Source of the DNA: an uncultured Thermodesulfobacteriota bacterium
GTDB lineage: Bacteria > Desulfobacterota > Desulfarculia > Adiutricales > JAFDHD01
Assembly (NCBI GenBank): GCA_964629485.1
Contig: CAZVRN010000001.1
Coordinates: 1-27,326, forward strand
Direction: 5' to 3'
DNA length: 27,326 nucleotides
Shown: piece after piece, positions 4,752 to 26,442 of the stretch
Layout: every line of letters starts with the position of its first letter
Numbering within the stretch: position 1 is the stretch's first letter
The notes under the pieces: generated by a model
The model's database searches: none
Told to the model about the DNA's origin: nothing
What the model saw: only the letters and a program-made list of their open reading frames with translations
Translations under genes and position numbers: made by a program

Positions 4752-4825
4752 GAGACCTTTGCAAAATTTCGTCCTTTGACTGATTTGGGTCAGGCTTCCG
4801 AGTAGTCATTACAACATTATTGTCG
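4752..4825 (-). mobile_element. Miniature inverted-repeat element, copy A (diverged, one end eroded)
   Basis: GAGACCTTTGCAAAATTTCGTCCTTTGACTGA...GTCAGGCTTCCG...ACAACATTATTGTCG aligns by eye with the reverse complement of the copy at 18534-18620. Confidence 0.6.
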
Positions 4826-4840
4826 GATTATAAAATCAAT

Positions 4841-4856
4841 ATTACAAAAATGTAAT
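4841..4856. promoter_or_regulatory. Perfect palindrome ATTACA-N4-TGTAAT, candidate operator
   Basis: Read directly in the AT-rich spacer between the divergent GTPase operon and the amt remnant. Confidence 0.25.
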
Positions 4857-4928
4857 TTTAAATTCGCCGTTTCTGCTTTTATTTTTTACGGTATTATAAC
4901 TAATTGACTTTTATAATCAAATTATCGA

Positions 4929-5447
4929 ATGACAACGGGTCTTGCTCCGCACCCTTTTTATGCACCCACGGTGCCGCATCAGGCTTTCATGATTTTTCAA
5001 TGCATGTTCGCGGTAATCACCCCGGCCCTTATTACCGGGGCCTTTGCCGAAAGAATGCGTTTCGGGCCTTTATCCGCGGCCCTGATCGGCATCCTGGCCG
5101 GAGCCGGCTGTTACCTGGGTATCCTGATCAAGAACAAGTTCGGATATGACGACAGCTTCGACGTGGTCGGTATTCATGGTGTCGGGGAGGTGATCGGGTT
5201 GCTTTGCGTAGGGCTTTTAGCCAGCAGCCTGGTCAATCCCGGTGGGGCGAACGGGTTGTTTTTCGGGAATCCGGCACAACTGGTCCTTCAGCTCTTGGCC
5301 ATTTTGGTTACGATGGCTTATTCTTTTATTGGAACCTATATCTTGCTTAAACTGGTCGATCAAATTTTGGGACTGAGACTTACTGAAAGTGATGAGATTC
5401 AGGGATTGGATTTAAGCCAGCATAAAGAGGTGGCATATGAAATTTAA
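4929..5447 (+). pseudogene. amtB: Ammonium transporter (Amt) remnant: 5'-truncated, with an in-frame central deletion
   Basis: YAPTVPHQAFMIFQCMFAVITPALITGAFAERMRF (early Amt helix) is fused directly to GPLSAALIGILAG..CY..KNKFGYDDSFDVVGIHGVG...GLDLSQHKEVAY (C-terminal Amt helices). It is only 172 aa, versus about 400 aa for intact Amt. Confidence 0.85.
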
Positions 5448-5452
5448 CTGGA

Positions 5453-5503
5453 AAAACCCCTTAAGAACCAGTAATTTTTAGGACTAAGTTCTTAAGGGGT
5501 CTC
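5453..5503 (+). mobile_element. Miniature inverted-repeat element, copy E (51-bp short form)
   Basis: 13-bp perfect inverted repeat ACCCCTTAAGAAC / GTTCTTAAGGGGT. The interior GTAATTTTT-AGGACTAAG corresponds to the two ends of the longer copies. Confidence 0.65.
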
Positions 5504-5551
5504 AAAGTACCCGTTGATTTTGTTTTTAAATTACAATCACCGCAGAAGATA

Positions 5552-6307
5552 TTAACTTAAAAATCTTTTTTTCAAGCCGAGCAGCCCGACAGAACCCGAA
5601 AACAAGAGCCATATGGCGCCCGGAATGGGAACGGCTGGTATTTTTTCATAGATGACATCATTGGCGCAGTTTATGGTCCACCCGAGAATGATGGCATTAC
5701 CACCTGTGTCAATATTCAGCCCGGCCCAGTAAATATAATATAACCCGTCTCCTTCCAGCGTACCGGGCATGTCATCCGAAAAGGTTACTCCATGAAGTTC
5801 TTCCAGGTCTGTGTTGCCGGGTATGATATTTACGGGATGGTATTTTCTCGGCGTACCGCTCCAGACCCACGTGTCATTGGAATATTCGTAATAGTCAGGT
5901 TTTACAGGAGAATAGGTCCCGAGTGCTATGGGAGAACCACCCGATTTGATACCCCACAATGCCTGGCCCCCGGTAGCCGATTCATGAACCACGTAATCCC
6001 ATGTCTGGTCGGCATTAATATCGATAAAGAGGTCGCCTGCAGCTAAGTGCTGTAAAAGAGAGTTGGTATTGTCGTACCATTTCATACCGATCGCCACGTC
6101 GGTCAGTGTCGCGCCGGAAAAATCAACTCTCCCGCCTTTGAACTTAGGGACTCCGTTTTCATCTGTATTGTCTATTGAGGATGTTTGCCCGGGGTAGCCC
6201 GGCCAGTAAATGGTATTGTCACTAAATGAAACCGTGGATGCTTGCGCTTGAACAACTATAAATAATAATATAGTTAGAAAAATCGTCGCTATGGCCAATT
6301 TTTTCAT
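5552..6307 (-). CDS. PEP-CTERM / VPLPA-CTERM-type exosortase-target surface protein
   Basis: Signal peptide MKKLAIATIFLTILLFIVVQAQA, with a GGAG RBS before the ATG at 6307 (preferred over the 6349 start). C-terminal sorting signal VPIPGAIWLLFSGSVGLLGLKKRFLS (motif, TM helix, basic cluster). Confidence 0.85.
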   Translation of the reverse strand: MKKLAIATIFLTILLFIVVQAQASTVSFSDNTIYWPGYPGQTSSIDNTDENGVPKFKGGRVDFSGATLTDVAIGMKWYDNTNSLLQHLAAGDLFIDINADQTWDYVVHESATGGQALWGIKSGGSPIALGTYSPVKPDYYEYSNDTWVWSGTPRKYHPVNIIPGNTDLEELHGVTFSDDMPGTLEGDGLYYIYWAGLNIDTGGNAIILGWTINCANDVIYEKIPAVPIPGAIWLLFSGSVGLLGLKKRFLS

Positions 6308-6953
6308 CGCCAATCTCCCTTCGGTTGGCAGTAGATATTGGATAAACACTACTTTTTTAAAAATACATAATTACTAATACAGACTATATTAACGAGTTTT
6401 ATCAAGTCAATACGCCGAAAGTACTATTTTTATAAATATTTTCTCATACTTTTTTCCTAGTTTTAATCTTGCCTGGAACTTAAATTCCGCTGATTTCCCC
6501 AAATTCAGGATGTTTTTTCAGCACCAAACAGGAGGCAAAAAAGCCCGGGGTTTTGGCCTGTGCAGCCGTATTGCTTCTGCGGGAAGGGCTTCTTTTTAGC
6601 GGCCTATCCTGTGTCGAAAAAATCTGTGCTAATGACCTAACTAATTAATTTAATTAATTTTTGATAAAAGTTTCGTTCGGAGATGGCTTGATTTGTAACA
6701 GCGCCTTCATGGCCGGAAGCTGCATAATGATTGACCCCAAGCGGCTTGATGTATTACTATGCCGGGGAATCATCTGTCATGTGAGCGCAGGATCGCCATT
6801 GTCAGGCGGACAAATTTTTTGAGCGCCCTGATATAGAGCGACCAAGTGCATTAAACGGGGTGAGAGGAACTGAAAATCATTAAACCGTGCCTCTTTTCAG
6901 TGCATCCCCGCCATAGTCAAAACCATTAATTATTTTAAGGAGATGAAACGACC

Positions 6954-8471
6954 ATGGAAAATGATTATATCGTTGAAACGTCAAATGGCAAGGTGCGCGG
7001 TTACAGTAAAAAAGGCATTATAAAGTTTAAAGGCATCCCTTACGCCGCGCCTCCTGTTGGAGACCTCCGTTTCAGGCCCCCGGCCCCGGCGGAGCCGTGG
7101 ACCGGGGTGCGGGACGCGCTGGAGTACAGCCCGATAGTGCCTCAGCCGGCCGGCGCCGTGGAATCCCTGTTTGGCGAACAGAGGGAACAAAACGAGGCTG
7201 AATGTTTAACCTTGAACATCTGGACCCGGGCCGTTGACGACCAGAAGCGGCCTGTCATGTTTTTTATTCACGGGGGTGGTTTTGTAACCGGGACCGGCGC
7301 TTCGCTGGAAGGCTCGCGCCTCGTTTTGAGGGGCGATGTGGTCGTGGTGAGCATCAACTACAGGCTGGGGTCGCTCGGGTTTTTGTACATGCCCGATGTG
7401 CCCGAGGCTGCGTCAAATATCGGGCTGCTCGACATGGCCGCCGCGCTGGAATTCGTGAAAAGAAATATTTCCCGCTTTGGCGGAGACCCGGATAACGTCA
7501 CCATTTTCGGGGAATCGGCCGGCGGCTTTGCCGTGGCCGGCCTGCTTGCCATGCCTGCCGTCAAGGGGTTATTCCACCGCGCTATTTTGCAGTCAGGCGC
7601 GGCGCATCCCCTGGGGTTCAACGCCAGGGCCGGAATAAATGTTTATCATCGTCTCCTGGAAGAATTGGGCATTCAAAAAGGCGATATAGAAGCCCTGCGC
7701 AGGGTTCCGGCTGAAGACATTATTAAAGCCCAGACAGCTATTATGCCCGTGGCCAGCGGTGATTTCGCCACGGAACGGCCCCTTAGGTTGGGGCCCGTGG
7801 TGGATAAGGAAACCCTGCCCGAACACCCGCTGGAGGCTTTGCGAAACGGTTTTGCCAAAGAAATAAGCGTCTTTGTCGGCTCCAACCTCGACGAGACAAA
7901 ATTGTGGCATATCTGGAATCCCGACGCGTATAAAATTGATGAAGACGGGTTGCTCAAGGGAGTAAACGGCGTCGTGTCCCTTGTGGGAAAGGATGAAAGT
8001 AAAGCCCGGGAAATGATTGAAGTATACAGGCAGAAACGAAAAACTCCGCGAGATATCATGGATGCGGTTTCCACGGATTACATGTTCCGCATTCCGTCTA
8101 TCCGCCTGGCCGAAGCACAAAGCGCACATCAAAAAAATACTTACATGTACCTTTTTACGTGGCAAAGCCCGCTGGCAGGAGGCAAGTACGGGGCCATGCA
8201 CGCCCTGGAGCTCGGCTTTGTTTTCGGAGTCCTTCAGCAAAAGGCGGTCGGCATCTTCCCCGAGAGAAATGAAGAAACCGAGGCCCTCAGCGAGGCCATG
8301 ATGGATACCTGGATATCGTTCGCCAGGAATGGAAACCCGAATAACGCCGGCATCCCGCCGTTTCCGCCGTATGATACTGAAAAAAGGGCGACCATTATCT
8401 TTGATAAAGAAATAAAAATCGTCGAAGACCCGTATGGCCACGAACGAGCTGTCTGGAGTGATCTGCTGTGA
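6954..8471 (+). CDS. Type-B carboxylesterase/lipase (PnbA-like)
   Basis: FKGIPYAAPPVGDLRFRPP, ECLTLNIW, oxyanion HGGGF, nucleophile GESAG, acid GSNLDET and GAMHALE His. AAGGAG RBS present. Confidence 0.95.
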   Translation: MENDYIVETSNGKVRGYSKKGIIKFKGIPYAAPPVGDLRFRPPAPAEPWTGVRDALEYSPIVPQPAGAVESLFGEQREQNEAECLTLNIWTRAVDDQKRPVMFFIHGGGFVTGTGASLEGSRLVLRGDVVVVSINYRLGSLGFLYMPDVPEAASNIGLLDMAAALEFVKRNISRFGGDPDNVTIFGESAGGFAVAGLLAMPAVKGLFHRAILQSGAAHPLGFNARAGINVYHRLLEELGIQKGDIEALRRVPAEDIIKAQTAIMPVASGDFATERPLRLGPVVDKETLPEHPLEALRNGFAKEISVFVGSNLDETKLWHIWNPDAYKIDEDGLLKGVNGVVSLVGKDESKAREMIEVYRQKRKTPRDIMDAVSTDYMFRIPSIRLAEAQSAHQKNTYMYLFTWQSPLAGGKYGAMHALELGFVFGVLQQKAVGIFPERNEETEALSEAMMDTWISFARNGNPNNAGIPPFPPYDTEKRATIIFDKEIKIVEDPYGHERAVWSDLL

Positions 8472-8538
8472 TCATGCTGAAATAAAGCCCGTACGGCTTG
8501 GTTAAAAATCCCTTTTTCAGGATCACCTGGATTTGACT

Positions 8539-9825
8539 ATGATGCAGGTTATGATGCGCTACGGCCGAAAGGGACTCACCCTGTCCTTTCCCGATGACTG
8601 GCAGGTGGACGTGGTCAATAAAAAAGCCATGCCCGTGCTTGATGATCCCCAAGGAGCCGTGGCTGAAGCACTGAAAAGTCCATTAGGCAGCCGCCCCCTC
8701 AGGGAGGAAGCCAAAGGCAAGAAAAACGCCTGCATTTTGATTTGCGACATCACCCGGCCGGTGCCCAACGGGCTTCTTTTGCCTCTCATTATCAGGGAGC
8801 TCATGGCCGGGGGCCTGGAGCCCGCTCAAATCAAGGTCCTGGTGGCCACCGGCCTGCACCGGCCCAATGAAGGTGATGAATTGAGGGAGGTGGTTGGGGA
8901 TGACCGGGTCCTGCAAACCGTGAGCGTGGCCAATCATTTCGCCCGGAACGATGAAGACCACCTGGACCTGGGCTTGACCCGGCGAGGTACACGGGTAAAG
9001 ATTGACAAGCGATTCGTCCGGGCCGACCTGCGCATTGTCACCGGGCTGGTGGAACCTCACTTTATGGCGGGCTATTCAGGCGGCCGCAAGGTCATCATCC
9101 CGGGAATCGCTCATCAGGACACCATCCGCCGTATCCACACCGCTTCCTTTCTGGAGCATCCAAAGGCGGCTAACTGCGTGCTGGAAGGCAACCCCCTGAA
9201 CGAGGAACAGCTTGAGATCGTGGACATGCTGGGCGGCGCGCTCAGCCTAAACACGGTCATCACTGAACAGCGCGAATTGAGCTACGTGAACTTCGGGGAA
9301 ATCAAGGAAAGCTATATGAAAGCCGTGGATTACGTGCGGCCCTACACCGAGGCCGCGCTGCCTCGCGCCTATCAGACCGTGATCACCTCGAGCGCTGGTT
9401 ACCCCCTGGACAAGACTTATTACCAGACCGTGAAAGGCATGGTCGGAGCCATGGAGATCCTCAAGCCCGGCGGTGACCTGTTTATTGTCAGCGAAATCAG
9501 CGAGGGCTTCGGGTCGCCTGAATTCCTTGCGGCTCAAAAACGGCTCGCAGAGCTTAACCCCCATGGTTTTCTAAAGAGCATTGAAAACAAAGATCAGGCC
9601 GAAATAGACGAGTGGGAAACCGAAGAACTGGTCAAAGCCGCGCGCAAAGGCAGGGTGCGGCTTTTTACCCGGGGACTTAGGCCCGAGGAGGCAAGGCTGA
9701 CCGGCCTGGAAGTCATCAGCAGCCTTGAGAAGCTGAACCAGGCCATTCTCAAAAGCGGGGGCAGGGAAAAAAGGGCCGCAGTCATCCCCGAAGGCCCCTA
9801 CATCATCCCTTTTATTCGTGGTTAA
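8539..9825 (+). CDS. Nickel-pincer-dependent lactate racemase family (LarA homolog)
   Basis: CDITRP, ATGLHRP, EPHFMAGYSGGRK, IRRIH and YQTVKG match the LarA Asp/Arg, His, His/Lys, Ni-His and Lys positions. The start is uncertain (8533 TTG, 8539 or 8542 ATG). Confidence 0.9.
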   Translation: MMQVMMRYGRKGLTLSFPDDWQVDVVNKKAMPVLDDPQGAVAEALKSPLGSRPLREEAKGKKNACILICDITRPVPNGLLLPLIIRELMAGGLEPAQIKVLVATGLHRPNEGDELREVVGDDRVLQTVSVANHFARNDEDHLDLGLTRRGTRVKIDKRFVRADLRIVTGLVEPHFMAGYSGGRKVIIPGIAHQDTIRRIHTASFLEHPKAANCVLEGNPLNEEQLEIVDMLGGALSLNTVITEQRELSYVNFGEIKESYMKAVDYVRPYTEAALPRAYQTVITSSAGYPLDKTYYQTVKGMVGAMEILKPGGDLFIVSEISEGFGSPEFLAAQKRLAELNPHGFLKSIENKDQAEIDEWETEELVKAARKGRVRLFTRGLRPEEARLTGLEVISSLEKLNQAILKSGGREKRAAVIPEGPYIIPFIRG

Positions 9826-10066
9826 GGTTGCCAGGGAGAGGTTGTCCTTGTCAATATTGGCGGCGGCTAAAAGCAGACACTCCATGTGCTGGTTGAATCG
9901 AACAGATTATGTCTCCGGGTACATAGCAGCGATTTATCCCTTTGACAAAGACGGCTGTTTCTATCTATACTCCTGCCTGTCAGAGGATGATTCAATATTT
10001 TTGCACCCTTTTCTGAAACGAAGCTCGTTGAATCAGGGTTATAATAAATAAGGGAGGTACTGCACC

Positions 10067-10861
10067 ATGCACGAACTCATAAACAGGAATATGGTGGATA
10101 CCATCCGCACCACGGGCAAGACCAATGAAAACCTGCCCGACCGAGTGGATATTTTGAAAAAATATGACCTCTCTTACGACCGCGAGGCTGAAAATGTTAT
10201 TATAACCGGCTGCCAGATTCTGGCGGCGCTTCCTCATGTTCTTAAATCTTTGGCTTCCCTTTTTGACCGAAAAAGTTTTTCATACACTTTTCTTTCCGAG
10301 GAATACTGCTGCGGGAATTACCTTTACCGTCCGGCCATAAAAGCCCGTGACGAAGATGCCATGAACGAGTGCCGCGAACTGTCAAAGGAATTTGTCACTA
10401 AAAATATGGAGCAGGCCAGACGACTCGGCGCAAAACGTCTGGTGATTTTTTGCTCGCCCTGTTATCCGATTTACAGACATGCTTTTCCGGATGAGGATAT
10501 TATTTTTTATCCTGCGGCCATTGATGAAGTCATGGAACCGCTTCAGTTTAAGGGGCAGATTGATTACTATGCCGGGTGTTATAAACTGCATCGAAAATTT
10601 TCACCCGTACCCATGGATTTAAAGTTTGTTGACGCGGTTTTTGCGAAGATGCAGGGTCTGGATGTTCACAGGATAAGCGCGCCCAAATGCTGCTTCACTC
10701 CGGAAGGCTTGAAACATATGACCGGAAACGTCACAACCAAAACCATGGTTCATGTCTGCACGGGATGTTACGGCCAGGCGGCGGGGAGCATTCCCGGTGA
10801 AAGGGGCGTTGAAATTTTGATGCTCCCGGAGTTCGTGGAGAAGGCATTAGAAGCGCATTGA
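10067..10861 (+). CDS. Stand-alone two-CCG-domain (Fe-S)-binding protein (HdrB/GlcF/LutA-related)
   Basis: Two Cys modules, TGC...EYCCG...CSPC and YAGC...KCC...CTGC. GGGAGG RBS and a TATAAT at 10040-10045 upstream. Confidence 0.75.
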   Translation: MHELINRNMVDTIRTTGKTNENLPDRVDILKKYDLSYDREAENVIITGCQILAALPHVLKSLASLFDRKSFSYTFLSEEYCCGNYLYRPAIKARDEDAMNECRELSKEFVTKNMEQARRLGAKRLVIFCSPCYPIYRHAFPDEDIIFYPAAIDEVMEPLQFKGQIDYYAGCYKLHRKFSPVPMDLKFVDAVFAKMQGLDVHRISAPKCCFTPEGLKHMTGNVTTKTMVHVCTGCYGQAAGSIPGERGVEILMLPEFVEKALEAH

Positions 10862-10973
10862 TAAACCATTGTGCATCGCGGCAGACAGGGCTCGGCGTGC
10901 CGGCCGCTGCCTTCAGCCGGGGGAGATAAAATAAGATAACTAAAGGCTTCATTTCCTGGAAGGACGTAATGTC

Positions 10974-11408: not shown

Positions 11409-11477
11409 AGATGAAAGTCAGCAAGCTTTTCAAATGCAGATCAGTGACTGGTCATCTGCGGGCCTGTGCTCGATAGA

Positions 11478-11502: not shown

Positions 11503-11548
11503 CGGCTTGAACCAGGGCGAGATAATAAAACCAGGGTAAGAACGGATC

Positions 11549-12199: not shown

Positions 12200-12223
12200 G
12201 CTTGGTGCAATTCATTTTTTAAT

Positions 12224-12255
12224 TGCAATAAAATTATTTGTTCTTAAGAAGCCTT
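12224..12255 (-). mobile_element. Miniature inverted-repeat element, copy F (one terminus only)
   Basis: Reverse complement AAGGCTTCTTAAGAACAAATAATTTTATTGCA matches the left end of copies C and H. AATAATTTTATTG is shared with H. Confidence 0.5.
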
Positions 12256-12309
12256 TGCCTGCCTTTCAGCCGGTAAAAAATCCAACCGGGTCCGGGCCAG
12301 GTCGTTATG

Positions 12310-15571: not shown

Positions 15572-15577
15572 TAACCC

Positions 15578-15716
15578 GGGACCCGGCAAAATTAAACCTT
15601 TAACCGAATTTATTACCAGGCTCAAAGTTACTTCCCCGAAATATTGGTAATATTCTCGTGGGTTAGATTTCCACCGCTTGCAAGCCCAATAAAATTATTG
15701 GTTTTTAGAGGGCCTC
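15578..15716 (-). mobile_element. Miniature inverted-repeat element, copy H (139-bp long form, diverged)
   Basis: Ends GGGACCCGGCAAAATT..CCTTTAACCGAA and AAAATTATTGGTTTTTAGAGGGCCTC match the family termini. The interior matches copy G. Confidence 0.55.
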
Positions 15717-16464: not shown

Positions 16465-16609
16465 CCGCATGACACCTGAAACGGCTATCTTCTTTGTTGA
16501 CCTGCCGTCGCCAAGACGATATAATTTTAATTATCAAGAAAATTTTTTCTTCAATGAAGCCCTGTTCCCACGGAAAATAATAACCGGGGCATGGCTGGAA
16601 TTGCATATT

Positions 16610-16692
16610 GAGACTCCTTAAGAACCGCTGATTTTGTTGAAATCGCGGAAAGCGACAATGAGTTCAGCTAAAGGACGAAGTTCTTAAGTCTC
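16610..16692 (+). mobile_element. Miniature inverted-repeat element, copy B (83 bp) with 5-bp TSD ATATT
   Basis: GAGACTCCTTAAGAAC...GTTCTTAAGTCTC, flanked by ATATT at 16605-16609 and 16693-16697. Confidence 0.8.
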
Positions 16693-16793
16693 ATATTGCT
16701 TTCCCAAAAACGGGCTGGCATCAAGCGCGGCAAAGGTCCGCCATGGCCTTGGTCTTAAAATATCGCGTTTCACTTGACCAGGGGAGGTAAACC

Positions 16794-18365
16794 ATGAACT
16801 TGGCTGAATTGGCCGAACAGTCGGCCGAACGTCTGGGTGAACGGATGAATTTGGTTTTTGAGGGCGAGCAGTTCACGAATTTTCAGTTTCTCGATTGGGC
16901 GCGGCGTCTGCACCGTGGTTTCGCCGGCCTCGGTCTTGCCAGGGGAGACATAGCCGTACTCTGCATGGCCAATCATCCCCTGGCTTTTGCTGTTTTTCAA
17001 GGCATTTTCCGAACCGGAGGCACCGCCATACCGGTCATGTTTATGATGTCTGCGGCTGAATTGCGATACGTGCTCAGCGATTCCAAGGCCAGGGGCGTAA
17101 TTACTGACGAGGCCAATGTGTCCAAGGTCAGGGAAGCTGTCCAGGGCCTTGATCACATCAGGTGGATGGTTGTCCTCGGGGGCGAAGACAATCCTGGATC
17201 ATCCCCGCCCGAATACCGGCTCGAAACGTTTTTAGACAATGAACCGGAAACAAATTTGCCGCAGATCAGCGAAGATGACCCGGCTTTGATGCTTTACACC
17301 GCGGGGACTACCGGAAAACCCAAGGGTGTTATGCTGACCCACGCCAATCTCATTGCTTCGGCCGAGGCGGCCAACGAGGCTTCGGAACTGGATCGGTGGG
17401 AGGGGCCGTATATAGGCATGAGCGCCATGCCCATGGCTCACATTTTCGGCGTTGGCGTTATGAACAGCGGCTATCTGGCCCCGGAGCATATAGCCGATGG
17501 TTACAGCGTTCAAATGAGCTGGTTCGAGCCTGAGCGGTTTATGCAGCTTATAGAACAGCATCGCTGTACGGTTATGGTGGCCGTGCCGACCATGCTCGCT
17601 CTGATACTAAACCATCCCAGGGTTGAACAATATAACCTTTCTTCTCTTAAAATGGTGGTTTGCGGAGCTTCTCCGCTGCCGGTCGAGATGGCCCGGGCTT
17701 TTTCCGAGCGCTATGGTTGCCGCATTCGGGAAATTTACGGCCTGACGGAAAATACCGGGCTTGGTTCGGCCAACCGCCTTTCTGAACCTTACCGTCCCGG
17801 TTCCGCGGGTCGGGCCTATTTCAATACCGAATTGAAAATTTTTGACCAGGATGACAAACCCCTGCCCGCGAATGAAATCGGCGAGGTGGTCATGCGCGGA
17901 CCAGCGGTCATGAAAGGCTATTATAACCGCCCGGAAGAAACGGCTGAAGCCTTACGTCACGGCTGGCTTCATACCGGGGACATGGGTTATCTGGATGAAG
18001 ACGGTTATCTCTTCATTGTTGATCGGAAAAAGGATATGATTATTCGGGGTGGAGAGAATATATATCCCGGGGAACTGGAAGAAATTATTTACGCGGTTAA
18101 AGGGGTGGCCGAGGCGGCGGTGGTCGGAGTGCCTGACCCGATTTACGGCGAGAGTGTGATTGCTTTTGTAGTCCCTGGTCCCGGGGCGAACCTTTCTGAA
18201 CAGGAAATAACTGATTTCATGCGGACCAGGACGGCGTCGTTTAAGGTGCCAGCGAAAATTCACTTCACGGATAGCCTTCCCAAGAGTCCGGTGGGCAAGG
18301 TCCTGAAGCGAGAGTTAAGAAAAAAAGCCTTAGTCGAGGAGGAGGGAAAGGAACTCCGGGTATAG
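16794..18365 (+). CDS. Long-chain fatty acid--CoA ligase (class I adenylate-forming enzyme)
   Basis: YTAGTTGKPKG, YGLTE, GWLHTGDMG, DRKKDMIIRGGENIYP and PKSPVGKVLK. GGAGG RBS present. Confidence 0.93.
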   Translation: MNLAELAEQSAERLGERMNLVFEGEQFTNFQFLDWARRLHRGFAGLGLARGDIAVLCMANHPLAFAVFQGIFRTGGTAIPVMFMMSAAELRYVLSDSKARGVITDEANVSKVREAVQGLDHIRWMVVLGGEDNPGSSPPEYRLETFLDNEPETNLPQISEDDPALMLYTAGTTGKPKGVMLTHANLIASAEAANEASELDRWEGPYIGMSAMPMAHIFGVGVMNSGYLAPEHIADGYSVQMSWFEPERFMQLIEQHRCTVMVAVPTMLALILNHPRVEQYNLSSLKMVVCGASPLPVEMARAFSERYGCRIREIYGLTENTGLGSANRLSEPYRPGSAGRAYFNTELKIFDQDDKPLPANEIGEVVMRGPAVMKGYYNRPEETAEALRHGWLHTGDMGYLDEDGYLFIVDRKKDMIIRGGENIYPGELEEIIYAVKGVAEAAVVGVPDPIYGESVIAFVVPGPGANLSEQEITDFMRTRTASFKVPAKIHFTDSLPKSPVGKVLKRELRKKALVEEEGKELRV

Positions 18366-18533
18366 CGTTGCCCCCGTATAAATTTTTCCTACAGCCAAGC
18401 TGCGGAGCCATGGCGGCGAACCCACTGGACCCGCTCAATAATAATGACCGGGGCAGTTTAGGTGTTCATTGCCTTCGGGAGTTAAGGAAAAGTCAAAGAT
18501 AAAAAATTCTCCCGCCGCGTGAATTTCAGAGAA

Positions 18534-18620
18534 AAGGCCTCTTAAGAACGACTAATTTTGTTGAAATCCCGGAAGGCTGACAATGACTTCGGCTAAAGGA
18601 CAAAGTTTTTAAGAGGTCTT
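18534..18620 (+). mobile_element. Miniature inverted-repeat element, copy C (87 bp) with 5-bp TSD GAGAA
   Basis: AAGGCCTCTTAAGAAC...GTTTTTAAGAGGTCTT (14/16 inverted match), flanked by GAGAA at 18529-18533 and 18621-18625. Confidence 0.82.
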
Positions 18621-18651
18621 GAGAAAAAGTTTTACAGATAAAAGGCTCTCC

Positions 18652-18680
18652 TTGACACGCGCTTAAATAGCACGTATATT
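18652..18680 (+). promoter_or_regulatory. Near-consensus sigma70 promoter
   Basis: TTGACA (18652-57), 17-bp spacer, TATATT (18675-80). Confidence 0.7.
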
Positions 18681-18921: not shown

Positions 18922-18936
18922 GCCCGGTTTTAAAAA

Positions 18937-20301
18937 ATGTTTTCAAAAATACTGATCGCCAACAGAGGGGAAATCGCGCTCAGGGTTATTCGCGCCTGTA
19001 AAGAGCTGGGAATTAAAAGCGTGGCCGTGTATTCAGAAGCGGACGCCGGTTGCCTGCACACCATGCTGGCGGATGAAAAAATATGTATCGGTCCGCCGGT
19101 CAGCGCCAAAAGTTATCTGAACATAGGCAATATCATTGATGCCGCGAAACAAACAGGCGTGCAGGCCATCCACCCGGGTTACGGATACCTGGCCGAAAAT
19201 AGTGAATTTGCCCGGGCCTGTGAAGATGAAGGATTTGTTTTTATCGGTCCGACCCCGCAAAATCTGCAGTTGGCCGGAGATAAATTAACGGCTAAAAAAG
19301 TCATGAAAGACGCTGGTGTGCCGGTCATCCCCAGCAGCCCCCATGGCGTGGGCAGCCTTGAGGAGGCGGCGGACTTAAGCCGCGGAATGGGCTATCCCGT
19401 TATGATTAAAGCCTCAGGCGGCGGCGGCGGCCGGGGCATCAGGATCTGCCAAAACGAAGCCGCCCTGGCCGAAGAACTACCAGTGGCTAAAATGGAAGCG
19501 CGCGCCGCCTTTGGTAACGAAGAGCTGTATCTGGAAAAGTGCATCATTCAGCCGCGGCATATTGACTTCCAGATACTGGCGGATAAATTCGGAAATGTCG
19601 CTCACCTGGGTGAACGGGAGTGCACCATCCAGAGACGGTACCAGAAGTTGATTGAAGAGTCACCTTCGCCCAAAGTGACCGCGGAGTTGAGAGAATCCAT
19701 GGGAAAGGCGGCCATCGCCGCGGCTAAAGCCGCTAAGTATTTTAACGCGGGCACGGTCGAGTTTCTCGTGGATAAAAACAGCAACTATTATTTTATGGAA
19801 ATCAACGCCCGTATTCAGGTCGAGCATCCGGTGACAGAACTGGTAACCGGCAAGGACCTGGTCAAGGAACAGATAAGGCTCGCCGCAGGCGAGGAACTGG
19901 CATACTCCTTTGAGGATCTGAATCTCAAGGGCTGGGCCGTGGAATGCCGCATCAACGCCGAAGACCCCGAGAGAAACTTTCTGCCATCTCCCGGTGTCAT
20001 AGAAGAATACCGTCCCCCGGGCGGCTTTGGTGTCCGCCTGGACACACACCTCTACCAGGGCTACGAACTTCCTATCTATTATGATTCCCTGATCGCCAAA
20101 CTCATCTCATATGACCTGACCAGGGAAGGCGCCATTCGCATCATGAAAAGGGCCCTTGGAGAATTTATTGTTAAACCGATCAAGACAACCATCCCCCTCC
20201 ATCTCAGGATTATGGATGACGCATTGTTTAAACAGGGCGATTTTGATACCGGCTTTATTGGCAGGATTTTACCGGACCAGGATGAAGATGAGGATGACTA
20301 G
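18937..20301 (+). CDS. accC: Biotin carboxylase (AccC / PycA-type subunit)
   Basis: KILIANRGEIALR, HPGYGYLAEN, KASGGGGGRG, ERECTIQRR, FMEINARIQVEHPVTE, CRINAED and YDSLIAKLI. No fused biotin-carrier domain. Confidence 0.93.
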   Translation: MFSKILIANRGEIALRVIRACKELGIKSVAVYSEADAGCLHTMLADEKICIGPPVSAKSYLNIGNIIDAAKQTGVQAIHPGYGYLAENSEFARACEDEGFVFIGPTPQNLQLAGDKLTAKKVMKDAGVPVIPSSPHGVGSLEEAADLSRGMGYPVMIKASGGGGGRGIRICQNEAALAEELPVAKMEARAAFGNEELYLEKCIIQPRHIDFQILADKFGNVAHLGERECTIQRRYQKLIEESPSPKVTAELRESMGKAAIAAAKAAKYFNAGTVEFLVDKNSNYYFMEINARIQVEHPVTELVTGKDLVKEQIRLAAGEELAYSFEDLNLKGWAVECRINAEDPERNFLPSPGVIEEYRPPGGFGVRLDTHLYQGYELPIYYDSLIAKLISYDLTREGAIRIMKRALGEFIVKPIKTTIPLHLRIMDDALFKQGDFDTGFIGRILPDQDEDEDD

Positions 20302-20417
20302 GGGCTATCTCAAAATTACTGTTTTAGCCTAACCTGCGGTAATATATTAAATATTTCAAGGAATTGAATTTGGACCTAACAATGAGGCCGGTTTGAAGGC
20401 CAAATTATTAAGAGGTT
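20302..20417 (+). mobile_element. Miniature inverted-repeat element, copy G (long form, degenerate)
   Basis: Fills the gap between the convergent accC and rex stops. The right part ACAATGAG..CGG...AAGG.CAAA.T.TTAAGAGGT matches copies B and C. About 47/71 nt match the reverse complement of copy H in a nearly ungapped hand alignment. Confidence 0.5.
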
Positions 20418-20419
20418 GT

Positions 20420-21058: not shown

Positions 21059-21101
21059 AGAACTCTGTCAAAAAATCGCTGAACCCGTTCGGTTTAAAGC
21101 T

Positions 21102-21140
21102 CTGAAGCCGCTGTCAGGACAGGCCTGACTGCGGCTTCAG
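21102..21140. terminator. Long GC-rich hairpin between atpE and rex
   Basis: CTGAAGCCGC-T-GTCAGG-ACAGG-CCTGAC-T-GCGGCTTCAG, 15 bp after the atpE stop. Confidence 0.6.
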
Positions 21141-21155
21141 GAGTCTTTCTCTTTT

Positions 21156-21527
21156 TTACATTCCAATTAAGCTCTTGATCGGTCCTGACATGGGATAGGC
21201 GAAGAGCAGGATCAATGCCACGACCAAAGCGTAAATACAAAGTGATTCAATCATGGCCAGACCGATAAGCATGGTCACGGTAATTTTACCTGAAGCCTCA
21301 GGATTGCGGGCCGTCCCCTCGACAGCGCCCTTGACAGAGATTCCCTGAGCTATACCGGTGCCTATGGCGGCAAAAGTGATTCCAAAACCAGCGGCCAGGA
21401 CAATGCCCAGGAAAACCTTGAGGCCGGCGACTTTAACAGCGGTTTCAGTGTCAGATGCCATAGCCATACTCGCGAGTCCCAGAATGAACAGGATGGCTAT
21501 AATGGTAGTCAACGATAACTTCTTCAT
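21156..21527 (-). CDS. atpE: F0 ATP synthase subunit c with N-terminal signal-peptide-like extension (123 aa)
   Basis: GTGIAQG, ARNPEA and MIESLCIY. The ATG at 21527 is preceded by AAGGAGGAAAGT. The ORF track's 21845 start is an upstream read-through. Confidence 0.95.
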
Positions 21528-21589
21528 ACTTTCCTCCTTCAATTTTTTGCCTTCTTTATTATCCCTGAAAATCAGGGCGGTAACCAAAA

Positions 21590-22279
21590 TTAATGAGCGT
21601 GCTCGATAGCCGCACTGATGTACATCATGGCCAGAAGCATGAAAATAAAGGCCTGTATAGCGCTGGTAAAAATGGCCATGAACATCATCGGCAGGGGTGC
21701 GAAGAATTTGCCGGCCAGGAGCAGTAAGATGGCCAGCACCAAATCTTCTCCCATAATATTGCCGAAAAGACGCAAGGTCAGCGAAAGCACTCGGGAAATA
21801 TGGCCGATGATTTCCACGGGCAGCATCAGAGGCGCCAGGGGCCACATTGATCCGGTAAAATGTTTGATATATTTAAAGCCATGGTTCTTAATCCCGGCGT
21901 AATGCGTCATGACAAAGACCACCAAGGCGCATGAAAGGGGAGTATTGATGTTCGAAGTCGGCGATAGAAAACCGGGAATCAGTCCCAACAGGTTTGATAC
22001 CAGGATATACAGAAAAAGAGTGGCGACGAGCGGAAAGTAACTTCGACCCTCTTCGCCCATGACTTCCACCTGGAAATTTTCGATAGTATCGATAATGACC
22101 TCGAGCACATTTTGAGCCGGGCCCGGAACGAGCTTGATGCTGAGAGTGGCCAGTCGTCCGAAAATGATGAACACAATAATAATCAGCCACGAATAAAGTA
22201 CATGGGGATAATGGTGAGCAAAATCACCCAAGCCAATCGCGTCGAAAAGGAGTGTTAAAAAAAGAATCGGATGTTCCAT
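21590..22279 (-). CDS. atpB: F0 ATP synthase subunit a
   Basis: [25 protein letters not shown] (essential Arg) and QAFIFMLL. Confidence 0.97.
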
Positions 22280-22282
22280 AGA

Positions 22283-22681
22283 TTAACCCGCCTCCTTGAT
22301 AATTTTTCTAAAAAGAACTAGGCCCATCTCCTGCAAGAGTACGGCCATGATTGTTATGATAAATGTAGAGAGGCCCAGTAAGAGGCCCAATCCGTTCAGC
22401 ATATGCTGAGAGATCACGATGAAGATGATCAGAACCGTGCCCAGAAAGAGCAGGTAGTACTTCGGGAGAACACTTTTCGGCGTAACCTTCGAGCCGGGTT
22501 CTAACGCCCGGACCAGCGCTAGGTGTAAAAAGTAAAGGTTCACCACGACCAGTAGTCCACCCGCTGCCACGCCAAGAGTTATTTCCCAGGGAAAAAAGAT
22601 TAAGGAAAATATGGTAAGCGCTCCCATGACGACCCGGCTCATAGGTTTTATCCTGAACAAGGGCCGGTAACTATCGGTCAT
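22283..22681 (-). CDS. atpI: ATP synthase protein I (4 TM)
   Basis: Four hydrophobic helices, including GVAAGGLLVVVNL, located directly before atpB. Confidence 0.8.
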   Translation of the reverse strand: MTDSYRPLFRIKPMSRVVMGALTIFSLIFFPWEITLGVAAGGLLVVVNLYFLHLALVRALEPGSKVTPKSVLPKYYLLFLGTVLIIFIVISQHMLNGLGLLLGLSTFIITIMAVLLQEMGLVLFRKIIKEAG

Positions 22682-22916
22682 TTTGTTTCTCCGACATGAT
22701 ACGGTCAGCCATTTTGGCGATAATATACAAATTCCTGAATCCGGCGATAATGCCGATTACTAAAAAGATTAAGGTAAACCAGGGCTCGGTGTGGAAGACG
22801 TAATGGTCCAGAAAATATCCAAAGCCCAGACCGAGAAACGTGGCCAGCACAAGGGAGATTCCCATGGTGCTGACCAGGGCCAAAAGCTTCATAGACTGCT
22901 TGGTCCCGCTCCGCAT
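22671..22916 (-). CDS. atpZ: AtpZ/AtpI-family (ATPase gene 1) protein
   Basis: GISLVLATFLGLGFGYFLD....PWFTLIFLVIGIIAGFRN, located first in the atp cluster. Confidence 0.88.
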   Translation of the reverse strand: MRSGTKQSMKLLALVSTMGISLVLATFLGLGFGYFLDHYVFHTEPWFTLIFLVIGIIAGFRNLYIIAKMADRIMSEKQNDR

Positions 22917-23126
22917 TCCTGCCCTCCGGTGGGACCATGAAGGCCCGGGTTTCCTCCATAGTGATTTTTTTCTTTTTAGACGCGATCAAGAGAATAAAAA
23001 AAAGAAAAATTTTATAAATTCTCTTATCGTTCAATTCTCTTACCTGGTGCCTCTATGCCTTCTTTACTGATGAATAAACATCAAATTTAAGGTATTTATA
23101 ATTTACGAAGCACTCCCTTCATCCAC

Positions 23127-23144
23127 TCGTGCAATCTATCACAT
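23127..23144. promoter_or_regulatory. Candidate Rex-like operator upstream of atpZ
   Basis: TCGTGCA-ATCT-ATCACAT matches the general Rex consensus TTGTGAA-N4-TTCACAA at 10/14 positions. Confidence 0.3.
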
Positions 23145-23215
23145 AGCCCTAACATATAGCCCCGGTTGAAGTCAACTCCTTTATGCAAATCAACCCCAAG
23201 TTCACACCCTGAATT

Positions 23216-24505
23216 TCAAACAAGATTTTGAAAAACACCCGCCGCCGCGGCCAGGGTCTGTTCAATATCGGTTTCAGTATGAGCGGCTGAAATAAAAGTC
23301 GTCTCAAACTGGGACGGGGCCAGGTAGATTCCATGTTCACGTAAGCCCCGGTAAAAACGGGCGAATAGATCCAAGTCAGACTTTGCGGCCGAGGCGTAAT
23401 CAGTCACCGGACCCGGGTTGAAAAAAAGACAGGACATGGATCCTATCTGGTGGCCGGTCACTGGCAGTCCGACCTTGGCCGCTTCTTCAAGCAGCCCGTC
23501 TGACAGGGTCCTGGAAAGTCTCTCGATCCGGGTGTAAATTTCAGGGTCGGATTTCAGGGTCCTGATAACAGCTAGACCGGCGGATACGGCCAGCGGGTTT
23601 CCGGATAAGGTGCCAGCCTGGTAGATATCGCCTTCCGGGGCAAGGTGAGACATAATGTCTTTTTTGCCGCCGAGAGCCCCGACCGGCAACCCGCCGCCTA
23701 TAATTTTTCCCAGGCAGGTCAGATCCGGGTCCAGGTTATAGAGTTCTTGAGCCCCGCCCAGCCCGATTCTGAAACCGGTGATGACTTCGTCCAGGATAAA
23801 AAGGGCCCCGTTTTCCCGGGCCAGCTCAGCGCATCCAGGCAGAAAATCCTCCCGGGGCGGGACCAGCCCCATGTTGCCGGCCACCGGTTCGACTATGACA
23901 GCGGCGATTTGCCCTTCAAAATTCTGGAAGGCCTCCTTAAGCGGCATAAGATCGTTATAAGGCAAAGAGATAGTCAACCGGGCCAGGTCTTCTGGCACAC
24001 CGGGGCTGCCGGGAATACCCAGTGTTGCCACGCCTGACCCGGCCGCGACCAGCAGGCTGTCGGCATGGCCATGATAGCAGCCGTCAAACTTGACAATATA
24101 GGGCCTGCCTGTAACGCCCCGCGCCAGCCGCACGGCGGTCATGGCCGCCTCGGTGCCTGAATTGACCAGCCTCGCCATTTCCACGGAAGGAAGGCAATCC
24201 ACCAATAACTCGGCCAGCTTCACTTCGGCCTCGGTCGGCGCCCCGAAACTGGTTCCCTTGGAAGCAGCCTCTTGGAGGGCCTCGGTCACGGCCGGGTAGG
24301 CATGCCCCAAAATCAAGGGCCCCCAGGAGCAGACATAGTCTATATAACTCTGTCCATCCGCGTCCCAGATCCTGCTCCCTTGCCCCCTGGTGATGAAAAT
24401 GGGATCGGTTCCGACCGAACGACAGGCTCGCACCGGACTGTTAACACCGCCGGGGATGACGCGCCGGGCCTCGTTAAGTAGATTTTGAGAATTTACGTAC
24501 TTCAT
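23216..24505 (-). CDS. hemL: Glutamate-1-semialdehyde 2,1-aminomutase
   Basis: IPGGVNSPVRA, GTSFGAPT, SGTEA, GCYHGH, DEVITGFR, LGKIIGGGLPVGA (PLP Lys) and QAGTLSGNP. Confidence 0.97.
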   Translation of the reverse strand: MKYVNSQNLLNEARRVIPGGVNSPVRACRSVGTDPIFITRGQGSRIWDADGQSYIDYVCSWGPLILGHAYPAVTEALQEAASKGTSFGAPTEAEVKLAELLVDCLPSVEMARLVNSGTEAAMTAVRLARGVTGRPYIVKFDGCYHGHADSLLVAAGSGVATLGIPGSPGVPEDLARLTISLPYNDLMPLKEAFQNFEGQIAAVIVEPVAGNMGLVPPREDFLPGCAELARENGALFILDEVITGFRIGLGGAQELYNLDPDLTCLGKIIGGGLPVGALGGKKDIMSHLAPEGDIYQAGTLSGNPLAVSAGLAVIRTLKSDPEIYTRIERLSRTLSDGLLEEAAKVGLPVTGHQIGSMSCLFFNPGPVTDYASAAKSDLDLFARFYRGLREHGIYLAPSQFETTFISAAHTETDIEQTLAAAAGVFQNLV

Positions 24506-24990
24506 TCAAAATACCTCATCGAAGTTTTTTTGTGTTCCTCGTGGCTGAAAAGCAATTCATACTCGGCTAATCCGGCGGCTTGAGACATGCGTTCCGCCAG
24601 GGCGCGGCATTCTTCCTCCGATCTGCCGTGGATCATGGCATACAGGTTGTACGGCCAGTCTGGCACGCCGGGGCGGTGGTAACAGTGAGTGACTTCCTGA
24701 AAAGAGGCCAGGATTTTGCCTGCCTCGTCTACGCGGGACTCCTCAACCTTCCAGGCCACCATGGCGTTGGCCGTGAAACCGGAAAGCTGGTGCCTGAGCG
24801 TGGCCCCGAATCTGCGAAGATAACCTTTGTCCTTGAGGGTTCGAATTGTTTCCAAAACCTCTTCTTCCGGCAGGCCGAGTTTTAAGCCCAGTTCCTTAAA
24901 CGGTCTGGCGCTGCAGCCCAGATCCCCGGACAATTCGTAAATAATGCGCTTCTCCGTGAGGCTGAGGGCCCTGCCTTTTCCTTTTTCCAC
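24502..24990 (-). CDS. ahbB: Siroheme decarboxylase beta subunit (AhbB/NirH-like, Lrp/AsnC fold)
   Basis: RRFGATLRHQ..GF.ANAMVAW, VTHCYHR and WPYNLYAMIHG. GTG start with a GAGGAG RBS; overlaps hemL by 4 bp. Confidence 0.88.
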   Translation of the reverse strand: MEKGKGRALSLTEKRIIYELSGDLGCSARPFKELGLKLGLPEEEVLETIRTLKDKGYLRRFGATLRHQLSGFTANAMVAWKVEESRVDEAGKILASFQEVTHCYHRPGVPDWPYNLYAMIHGRSEEECRALAERMSQAAGLAEYELLFSHEEHKKTSMRYFE

Positions 24991-25092
24991 CGCTCTCTCC
25001 TCTCTTCTGTTCAGATTACCAAAAATAGCTTAGCCTCCCCGGCCTGTCAAGATTCCGATGGGCTGTTAGGCCAGCAAGATAAAAATGTCCCC

Positions 25093-25240
25093 ATGCGAGA
25101 GGGTGGAATTTTACTGACCAAGGAAGAACGGACAAGGTATCATCATCATACGTATGGTGAAAAATGGTGGGCTGACCTTGAAAGAGGCAAGCGCTAAAAT
25201 GGGCCTTGGCTGCCGCCAGAGCAAGAGGGTAAAAAAAAGA
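25093..25240 (+). pseudogene. Frameshifted N-terminal HTH fragment of an ISNCY/IS1202-like transposase
   Basis: MREGGILLTKEERTRYH, +1 shift at 25144, then IIRMVKNGGLTLKEASAKMGLGCRQSKRVKKR. This resembles the 'E..RY.II..V..G.LT.KEA...MG...RQ..R.K.R' N-termini of these transposases. Confidence 0.6.
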
Positions 25241-25273
25241 GGTTCAGGCCAATGCTGCTTTAAGGATAACTTG

Positions 25274-25295
25274 AAAGGGGGCCGAAGCCCCCTTT
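25274..25295 (-). terminator. Rho-independent terminator of the crotonase gene
   Basis: Minus strand reads AAAGGGGG-C(TTCG)G-CCCCCTTT, a UUCG tetraloop, 7 bp after the stop. Confidence 0.75.
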
Positions 25296-25302
25296 AGAGT
25301 CT

Positions 25303-26097
25303 TTAACGGCCCTTCCACTGAGGCGGGCGTTTTTGGACAAAAGCGAGCGGGCCTTCTTTGACGTCTTCGGAATTATACATCTTCTGAACACCCGGCCACT
25401 GTGTCTTCATGGCCTCTTCCAATGACATATGAAGACCCATGGTCGTACATTCCTTGCTGGCCCGCAGTGAAAGCGGCGCACCGAGCAGAATTTCATCAAT
25501 CCACTTATCAACGGTCGCCATCAAGTCAGCCGCGGGAACAACCTCATTCACAATACCGTACCCTGCGGCTTCCTGGGCCGTGATACGCTTGGATGTCATG
25601 ATCATGCCCATGGCCAGATGATAAGGCATTTGCCGCGGAAGACGATGGACTCCGCCGGCGCCGGGCATTAAGCCGACCCGGTGTTCCGGCAGACCGAAGG
25701 TGGCGTTTTCAGCCGCAATGATGATGTCGCAGGCCAGGGCGATCTCGAAACCGCCGCCCAGGGCCAGGCCGTTGACCGCGGCGATAAAGGGCTTGAAGCA
25801 GTCAAACCGGGCGGTAATGCCGCCGAATCCGCCCTTGACTCCCTGCATGGCAGCCATCATTTCTTCTCGGGTATGGGTAGATTGATATTTAAGATCATTG
25901 CCCGCGGAAAAAGCGCGATCTCCGGCCCCGGTTATAACGCAGATCCACTGGTCATCATCCTCGTGGAATTCATTAAACGCCGTATCCAGTTCCTTGGTGG
26001 TTTCCGGGCTGATAGCATTCATAACCTCTGGACGATTAATTGTAACGGTTGTTACGTGTTCCCTTTTCTTCTCTACAAGGATTTGTTCAAAAGCCAT
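25303..26097 (-). CDS. Enoyl-CoA hydratase/isomerase (crotonase family)
   Basis: NRPEVMNAI, AFSAGNDLK, ALGGGFEIALACD, FGLPEHRVGL and KEGPLAFVQKRPPQWKGR. AAGGAGG RBS present. Confidence 0.95.
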   Translation of the reverse strand: MAFEQILVEKKREHVTTVTINRPEVMNAISPETTKELDTAFNEFHEDDDQWICVITGAGDRAFSAGNDLKYQSTHTREEMMAAMQGVKGGFGGITARFDCFKPFIAAVNGLALGGGFEIALACDIIIAAENATFGLPEHRVGLMPGAGGVHRLPRQMPYHLAMGMIMTSKRITAQEAAGYGIVNEVVPAADLMATVDKWIDEILLGAPLSLRASKECTTMGLHMSLEEAMKTQWPGVQKMYNSEDVKEGPLAFVQKRPPQWKGR

Positions 26098-26290
26098 AAC
26101 CTACCTCCTTTATTTTTTGCTGAATGGCATTTGTTTTGCCCGATTTAGAAGGGCGGTCACCCCGTCCCGTAAACCTGATTTCCAACGAGAATATAAGTGA
26201 AATTCACCTAGACCTCGCGCTTAGGGCCTTCCTGGCCCGATCGGCTTCCTATTTCTCGGTTCCATTACGATTCCCTCTTAATCGGCTAGC

Positions 26291-26319
26291 ATATTAAGCC
26301 TAATAAGGTGGTTTTGTAA
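26291..26319 (-). promoter_or_regulatory. Candidate sigma70 promoter for the crotonase gene
   Basis: Minus strand TTACAA-17 bp-TAATAT, which would give a leader of about 185 nt. Confidence 0.35.
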
Positions 26320-26356
26320 ACCTTTTATTGTTTTTTTATGAATTGATTTTAGTAAC

Positions 26357-26442
26357 AGGACCTCTGAAAAATAAGTAATTTTGTTAAATTCGCGAAATCT
26401 GGCCATGAGTTTGGCTAAAGGACAAAGTTCTTAAGAGGCCTC
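26357..26442 (+). mobile_element. Miniature inverted-repeat element, copy D (86 bp)
   Basis: AGGACCTCTGAAAAAT...TAATTTTGTT...GGCTAAAGGACAAAGTTCTTAAGAGGCCTC, closely colinear with copy C. Flanks GTAAC/GCAGC match at only 3/5. Confidence 0.75.

Follow-up and report, generated by a model that had tools for sequence, protein, structure and literature searches.

The 27,326-nt stretch of DNA analysed here (positions 1 to 27,326 of contig CAZVRN010000001.1, assembly GCA_964629485.1, from an uncultured Thermodesulfobacteriota bacterium), hereafter called the window, carries eight short palindromic repeats in the spacers between its genes, at a density of about one copy per 3.4 kb. The question posed by this locus is what kind of sequence these repeats represent: mobile elements, RNA hairpins that serve the transcripts in which they lie, or chance likenesses among AT-rich spacers. 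The most probable answer, to which we assign a probability of roughly 0.85, is that they form a family of miniature inverted-repeat transposable elements (MITEs). Every testable hallmark of a MITE is found in them, namely a size below about 600 bp, the lack of coding sequence, inverted repeats, target-site duplications of fixed length, dispersed copies and an empty site. A preliminary description of the window had already proposed a non-autonomous MITE family, and the inverted repeats, the 5-bp duplications, the empty site, the dispersal, the copy number and the lack of a nearby transposase all bear this proposal out.

Anatomy and copies of the repeat family

The dominant form of the element is 86-87 bp long and non-coding; the consensus of the full-length copies, GAGACCTCTTAAGAACGAGTAATTTTGTTGAAATCGCGGAAGnCTGACAATGAGTTCAGCTAAAGGACGAAGTTCTTAAGAGGTCTC, spans 87 nt and holds no open reading frame (ORF). 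Its terminal inverted repeats are 16 bp long and perfect in the consensus (5'-RAGRCCTCTTAAGAAC...GTTCTTAAGAGGYCTY-3'), the perfect repeat usually beginning with GAGAC or AAGAC. Mean identity across an alignment of nine full-length copies is 87%, and in these nine copies 92.8% of the cells of the terminal helix are paired. The inner arms are about 55% alike, so that the two halves are imperfectly complementary over the whole length, and the entire element folds into one hairpin of 31 pairs. The folding of the short copies is much better than that of shuffled sequences, with z-scores of -2.6 to -4.4. The termini and the subterminal blocks (TAATTTTRTTG and GGCTAAAGGACAAAG) given in the preliminary description proved correct when the copies were read.

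Copy lengths across the family range from 51 to 139 nt, and the size classes proposed earlier are real: one copy of 51 nt, three of 83-87 nt and two of 116-139 nt are present in the window, in addition to a 32-nt solo half and a 74-nt remnant. The long form corresponds to the short form with an extra central block of 35-55 nt, AT-rich and itself palindromic, which sits between ...GCGGAAG and GCCTGAYAATGAG; a similar 35-nt insertion is seen at 18576/18577 in Logan contigs. The 51-nt form, conversely, is the short form without its centre, the two ends being joined. The proposal that the classes make up a nested deletion series is thus broadly right for the short, long and 51-nt forms, which differ in their centre, although the change may have proceeded either by deletion or by insertion.

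The minus strand of the element also carries a weak sigma-70-like motif (window 18583..18555; TTGTCA, a 17-nt spacing and CAAAAT), which agrees with the promoter consensus at 9 of 12 positions. This motif, identified by its consensus match only, is conserved in the element consensus and could drive outward transcription through the left terminus.

A repeat finder independently groups 16612-16688, 18537-18613 and 26359-26435 as one family of 77 nt, ties both ends of 5453-5503 to that family, and pairs 12222-12256 with 18533-18567 in a 35-nt inverted match that is 86% complementary. The core motif CTTAAGAAC, with at most one mismatch allowed, occurs 16 times in the window compared with 5.45 +/- 2.2 times in shuffled sequences, none of 100 shuffles reaching 16.

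Two nhmmer profiles were constructed. The short-form profile combines three full-length copies of the window with five others, likewise full-length, from metagenome contigs, and it matches all eight of the places described below and no other place in the window. Copies 16610, 18534 and 26357 are themselves members of this profile, and their top scores therefore arise partly by construction; the five metagenome copies were found independently, and show that the family is real. The long-form profile was built solely from copies outside the window, and was used to re-test the two weakest matches, 15578 and 20302. Together, the profiles confirm seven of the eight copies originally listed and identify the eighth, copy 4752, as a weak, 5'-truncated remnant. 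The coordinates are correct to within 1-3 nt, and the depth of Logan contigs changes at exactly 18534 and 18620.

The three short full-length copies all lie on the plus strand. Copy 16610 (16610..16692; 83 nt; E=1e-23), the right arm of which has a 3-nt deletion, shows on its two sides a perfect 5-bp duplication, ATATT (16605-16609 and 16693-16697). Copy 18534 (18534..18620; 87 nt; E=1e-25) is likewise flanked by a perfect duplication, GAGAA, at 18529-18533 and 18621-18625. Copy 26357 (26357..26442; 86 nt; E=8e-24) has a mutated left arm and lies 10 nt downstream of the pdxA stop codon; it is present also in the ENA contigs L022 and L023. Since its flanks agree at just three of five positions, this copy is probably an older insertion.

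The two long-form copies have both diverged. Copy 15578 (15578..15716; minus strand; 139 nt) scores E=7e-12 with the long profile and 8e-2 with the short one; its centre contains the additional AT-rich palindromic block, and no target-site duplication can be recognised at its ends. Copy 20302 (20302..20417; plus strand; 116 nt; E=3e-9 with the long profile, 0.13 with the short) occupies the entire spacer between the convergent stop codons of accC and rex.

The remaining three copies are partial. The internally deleted 51-nt copy (5453..5503; plus strand) was found by the repeat finder and by nhmmer (E=6e-3 for its right end, 0.11 for its left end). It forms a perfect 13-bp stem (dG -21.1, z -4.4), in which a T-A pair of the consensus has been replaced by C-G in a compensatory manner, and it begins 6 nt past the stop codon of the remnant of an ammonium-transporter gene, amt. 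Copy 12224 (12222..12255; minus strand; E=1e-2) is a solo left half, composed of the terminus and the TAATTTTATTG block, which ends after about 32 nt. The weakest member, copy 4752 (4752..4825; minus strand; 74 nt; E=3e-3 with the short profile, 0.2 with the long), retains a recognisable right terminus and centre, lacks the left terminus, and folds no better than shuffled sequences (z +0.5). It adjoins the truncated amt gene, and is probably a degenerate, 5'-truncated copy.

All eight copies are intergenic, and for five of them a stop codon is no more than 50 nt away, in agreement with the earlier statement that most follow soon after one. At 90% identity or more, copies 4752, 5453 and 12224 are at single-copy depth, and contigs read straight through them. 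Copies 16610 and 18534, by comparison, are near the consensus with their duplications intact, and because of this metagenome assemblies merge them with the other members of the family. Insertions of both recent and old date are thus present in the window.

Target-site duplications, an empty site and dispersal

In 4 of 10 full-length copies, the termini are directly bordered by perfect 5-bp duplications: the ATATT and GAGAA of copies 16610 and 18534, and GATTA and ACATT in the metagenome copies L008 and L010, respectively. In a fifth copy, L016, the flanks CTTTT and CCTTT agree at four of five positions, and at all five (CCTTT on both sides) when shifted by 1 nt. As a control, left and right flanks were mismatched, which gave a per-position match rate of 0.296. 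At this rate, the binomial probability of finding at least four perfect duplications among ten copies is 5e-9, and 28 of 200,000 permutations reach four. The duplicated 5-mers are all different and are 76% A+T, from which it follows that they are true duplications of an AT-rich target rather than a fixed recognition site.

A related metagenome-assembled genome (MAG), GCA_019309185.1, provides an empty site. Its contig L026 has the same FmdE-ligase synteny as the window, with a ligase that is 89% identical, and no element is present between the two genes at the site orthologous to that of copy 16610, where nhmmer yielded no match. Furthermore, when the element and one ATATT are removed from the window sequence, the remainder aligns colinearly with L026 and outscores the filled version.

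Copies are also dispersed beyond the window. A scan of JGI metagenomes with a 20-nt pattern returned 16 loci, of which 11 are genuine copies in contigs from vent metagenomes, two of these contigs bearing a second copy. The metagenome copies adjoin unrelated genes, such as those encoding HD-GYP, radical SAM, Smr, EthD, SDR, CobW, AFOR and FMN reductase proteins. The ENA, JGI and Logan assemblies carry the same copies independently.

The number of copies was estimated from depth, for which Logan contigs of four metagenome runs were aligned to the window. At copy 18534, depth increases from 3-5x in the flanks to 94-739x on the element, with a sharp rise at 18534 and a fall at 18620. At L010, a near-consensus copy, depth is 650-1130x on the element as compared with 3.8-4.7x in the flanks; here, 166-186 contigs per run fall on the element, and the termini are exactly where dozens of unrelated AT-rich loose flanks begin. 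Overall, the depth ratio is approximately 30-290. These values correspond to a number of the order of 100 copies per genome-equivalent, which is an upper estimate if several related populations contribute. The earlier expectation of hundreds of copies is accordingly right in its order of magnitude. In the metagenome contigs the left half of the element is deeper than the right, about 1.5-fold at L010 (489-575) and about 3-fold at window 18534-18620, an excess that suggests surplus solo left halves, such as copy 12224, or other elements that possess the same end.

The mechanism by which such a family would arise is that of other MITEs. A DDE-type transposase encoded elsewhere in the genome would bind both termini, excise or copy the element, and insert it by means of a 5-bp staggered cut in AT-rich intergenic DNA, an insertion that would leave the 5-bp target-site duplication. 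Following amplification to about 100 copies, decay would have generated the long forms, the 51-nt deletion, the solo halves and the truncated remnants. Duplications of 5 bp are made by several families, among them Tn3, the IS2 group of IS3, IS21, IS1380, ISH3, some IS701, IS481 and IS1634 elements. The repeats, their termini, the duplications, one empty site, the copy number and the restriction to one lineage are shown by the data, whereas we infer the class of the transposase, mobilisation in trans and the direction of any conversion of long forms to short; no autonomous partner was found in the window or in the copy-bearing loci. The statement in the preliminary description that the window lacks a cognate transposase stands, as no transposase domain was detected in its scanned ORFs of at least 130 aa.

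A side observation touches on the missing partner. Loose ends at window 18574-18577 in runs X1 and X8 belong to some contigs that share the left ~40 nt with the element, beyond which they pass into at least 255 nt of a different interior, for example ACTGAAAATTTGTTCCGTCAAAATACAAAA. These contigs may represent a longer relative or an autonomous element. The class is known from loose contig ends alone, and was not found in any fetched locus.

Several points weigh against the assignment of the repeats to a MITE family. The empty site is a single site in a species-level relative with a spacer only ~70% identical, and does not amount to a clean pair of alleles. No insertion polymorphism was seen within populations in four metagenomes, in which the seven copies other than 26357 were examined. 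Half of the full-length copies are without a recognisable duplication, which could be explained by age or by recombination between copies. The copy number was read from the depth of metagenome contigs. Lastly, neither the window nor the fetched copy-bearing loci contain an autonomous element or a transposase gene with these termini.

Alternative readings and known families

A first alternative extends the MITE reading rather than replacing it. A BLAST search of plasmids with a long-form copy uncovered an unannotated repeat on two plasmids of the cultured Deltaproteobacteria bacterium Smac51 (CP026659.1 and CP026658.1). This repeat is about 147 nt long, palindromic throughout and intergenic, with at least six copies on the two plasmids (CP026659.1 78963-79107, 80985-81095, 91285-91429, 93699-93843, 93848-93965 and 117266-117410; CP026658.1 28167-28276; and L030 1461-1602). 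Its central ~50 nt are 82% identical to the centre of the long-form copy L003 (BLAST E=6e-4, nhmmer E=4e-6), whereas its termini (GAAGTCATTTCATAAATA...) are unrelated and its flanks are TA instead of a 5-bp duplication. In addition, a profile of the Smac51 repeat does not reach the window's own long copies. A distant or modular relationship is thus possible on the basis of these alignments, and we regard it as a lead, not a finding. One plasmid of Smac51 that bears the repeat also carries an IS200/IS605-family transposase gene (19249-19725), which is adjacent to no copy.

Should the likeness reflect true homology, the palindromic elements of Deltaproteobacteria would be modular, and their centre would have a function of its own, as a site for a host factor or nuclease, an RNA hairpin or a promoter. 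The corresponding view of the family, as something more than selfish DNA in which a conserved central hairpin is carried as cargo between exchangeable transposase-recognition ends, with some copies perhaps exapted, is in our judgement a speculative one that will probably turn out to be wrong.

A second alternative is that the repeats are primarily functional RNA hairpins, acting as stabilisers of the 3'-untranslated region (UTR), terminators, processing sites or small RNAs (sRNAs), and that they are kept by selection on transcripts and not by transposition. The preliminary description had likewise suggested that the copies supply 3'-UTR hairpins that shape termination or stability. The proximity to stop codons (within ~50 nt for five of the eight window copies and for several metagenome copies), the folding of the short copies, far better than that of shuffles, and a few compensatory changes in the arms are all as such a role would predict. 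However, the 26 terminator-like sites all lie outside the copies, and there is no T-tract beyond the stem. The orientation of window and metagenome copies with respect to the nearest upstream gene is nearly balanced (about six the same and four opposite), so that no orientation bias is seen. Covariation does not exceed that of controls, 80-161 of 500 shuffles being as high, and G-U and A-C mismatches are about equally common, giving no strand signal. The hairpin is therefore best viewed as inherited palindromy, with no detectable selection on RNA from either strand.

Rfam scans of the whole window, of the element alone, and of the long form together with the Smac51 locus retrieved only microRNA-hairpin noise (15 bits, as compared with gathering scores of 52-93). 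This lack of a family match leads us to reject a ribozyme or sRNA family. Furthermore, the duplications and the empty site require mobility in any case. An origin through transcript selection is consequently improbable, and the suggested effect on termination or stability finds no backing in the features just described. Under the MITE reading, the position of copies after stop codons may reflect AT-rich targets and tolerance of insertions at these sites.

Individual copies may nonetheless have been exapted secondarily, to judge from their sequence contexts: one supplies the stop codon of a hydrolase gene, one lies in a probable 5'-UTR, and the minus strand carries the promoter-like motif described above. 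The first of these is in locus L015, in which the ORF of an alpha/beta-hydrolase (3-848) runs about 29 nt into an element (821-907) and stops at an internal TAA (849-851); the element hence provides the last codons and the stop codon of this gene. The second is copy 16610. Two strong sigma-70-like sites, each with 11 of 12 matches, bracket copies on the plus strand of the window, at 16497-16525 and 18652-18680. Copy 16610 is situated between the first site and the start codon of the ligase gene at 16794, and it would thus probably lie in the 5'-UTR of that gene. Copy 18534 is found just upstream of the second site, which is promoter-like for the accB/accC unit.

A third alternative, still less probable than a primary role in RNA, is that the repeats are of the REP/REPIN type, in which two inverted REP units form a hairpin that is moved as single-stranded DNA by a RAYT, a Y1 transposase like that of IS200/IS605, in place of a DDE enzyme. 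The folding of the whole element into one long hairpin, the high copy number, the strictly intergenic location and the failure to find a DDE transposase in the window or loci are all compatible with this mode of transposition. Yet transposition by RAYT and IS200/IS605 enzymes makes no target-site duplication, and the variable 5-bp duplications observed here are highly significant. Nor is there a tetranucleotide conserved at the target or a short REP unit that bears a GTAG-like head, and no RAYT gene was detected in the window or in any copy-bearing locus.

Finally, the repeats might reflect an artefact of assembly or a chance likeness between palindromes of AT-rich spacers, and copy 4752 and the solo half 12224 are indeed weak when taken singly (E of about 1e-2 to 3e-3). 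For the core family this reading is already refuted, by E-values that reach 1e-23 to 1e-28, by a motif count far above that of shuffles and by the independent occurrence of the same copies in three sets of assemblies.

Among repeat families that are already known, the Correia element of Neisseria (CREE/NEMIS), the traits of which are well established, comes nearest to the present element in its size, its size classes, its hairpin form and its copy number. Correia elements are likewise non-coding sequences of ~100-150 bp with terminal inverted repeats, which form a hairpin over their whole length, fall into size classes that differ by an internal block, occur in some 100 or more intergenic copies, often near gene ends, and have no identified cognate transposase. 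They differ in that they duplicate TA and possess unrelated inverted repeats of 26 bp, in contrast to the 5-bp duplication and 16-bp repeats of the present element; its duplications include GAGAA, which holds no TA, and its termini are unrelated. Further known traits of Correia elements are that their transcripts are substrates of RNase III, and that some copies make promoters or carry sites for IHF.

The ERIC (or IRU) sequences of enterobacteria and the RUP and BOX elements of pneumococci are imperfect intergenic palindromes of ~100-130 bp, and also exist as longer and shorter variants that arise by internal insertions and deletions. Their sequences and hosts are unrelated to those of the present element. 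In addition, RUP duplicates TA and matches the ends of IS630-Spn1, and ERIC shows no clear 5-bp duplication. REP, BIME and REPIN sequences resemble the family as high-copy, intergenic, hairpin-forming repeats, but they produce no duplication, consist of short REP units and are associated with RAYT, none of which is seen here.

The Tn3-derived TIMEs share with the present family a 5-bp target-site duplication and a preference for AT-rich targets. Inverted repeats of the Tn3 family are ~38 bp long, start with GGGG and end with TAAG, unlike the 16-bp repeats beginning GAGAC or AAGAC that are found here; membership among the TIMEs is not claimed, since no similarity to Tn3-type repeats was apparent. 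The element is thus not a member of the Correia, ERIC, RUP, REP or TIME families. Integron attC sites were likewise rejected, as the termini depart from RYYYAAC/GTTRRRY, the genes do not share one orientation and the element has target-site duplications. No matching family was found in Rfam or in the searchable literature, the terminal motif itself included, and, judged against these sources, the MITE family appears to be undescribed.

The family thus adds one more case to a familiar kind of element, and does not represent a new mechanism; it would hold no surprise for a specialist. It would pose a new mechanistic question only if the autonomous partner is unusual or if the lead of the modular centre holds. 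Its use lies in annotation and in understanding the fragmentation and plasticity of the host genome.

Host lineage and neighbouring genes

DNA of the window occurs in marine, sediment and hydrothermal-vent metagenome runs, and the element is found in the same vent and sediment runs as its host. The nearest relatives of the window's proteins belong to MAGs labelled Deltaproteobacteria, Desulfobacteraceae or Desulfatiglandaceae, and its AccC is no more than 79-80% identical to any other that was found. An exact pattern of the element had no match in 185,579 species-representative genomes, a result that fits the lack of a close reference genome for the host. A ligase-guided scan of the species representatives gave at best a match of 61%, in an Acidobacteriota MAG that has neither the synteny nor the repeats, and a scan of viral contigs returned two chance matches, both within coding sequence.

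The nearest AccC relative (79% identity) is encoded on an 11.3-kb contig, L028, with the gene order accB-accC...rex-atp-hemL-ahb and thus much of the synteny of the window. This contig contains no copy of the element. The family has been amplified in one uncultured deltaproteobacterial (Desulfobacterota-like) lineage of hydrothermal vents and marine sediments, and the element, absent from the species representatives as well as from the nearest syntenic relative, can serve as a marker of that lineage.

The repeats also explain why this organism is poorly assembled. ENA assemblies hold the DNA of the window only as contigs of 1-5 kb that break near repeats, so that public contigs end at copies of the element. 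Extension of the window by means of its edge proteins led only to contigs of 1.2-2.5 kb, with no further copies.

The MITE load is dense for a bacterium, and constitutes a substrate for recombination, gene truncation and altered UTRs. Two places in the window are candidate examples of MITE-driven change: the truncated amt gene beside a truncated copy, and the junction of accC and rex. The amt ORF (4929-5447, plus strand) is a remnant of 172 aa, with 4597-4928 lying upstream of it. Pfam Ammonium_transp matches the remnant in two stretches, the best of which spans profile positions 274-399 of 399, and the truncated end of the degenerate copy 4752 faces it. A deletion between copies of the element may have removed the 5' part of amt. 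At the other place, L028 contains genes for an NMO-type oxidoreductase and an MDMPI/DinB-like protein between accC and rex (3277-5549), where the window has only the long copy 20302-20417, and this copy may mark a point of rearrangement or deletion. Truncation was suspected for pdxA as well, and was ruled out, as this gene runs off the end of the window.

The genes of the window are of an ordinary housekeeping kind, and encode a branched-chain permease, two dynamin-like GTPases, the ammonium-transporter remnant, a carboxylesterase, LarA, a LuxR-type response regulator, RNase J, an acyltransferase, Usp, FmdE, an acyl-CoA ligase, AccC, Rex, ATP synthase subunit a, HemL, a siroheme-decarboxylase-like protein, an enoyl-CoA hydratase and PdxA. 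From the syntenic contig L028, the cluster of ATP synthase subunit a also includes ATPase_gene1, ATP-synt_I and subunit c. The two large GTPases (574 and 589 aa) are adjacent on the minus strand at 1106-4596, and have weak matches to Dynamin_N and MMR_HSR1; by these matches and their arrangement, they look like a bacterial dynamin-like protein pair.

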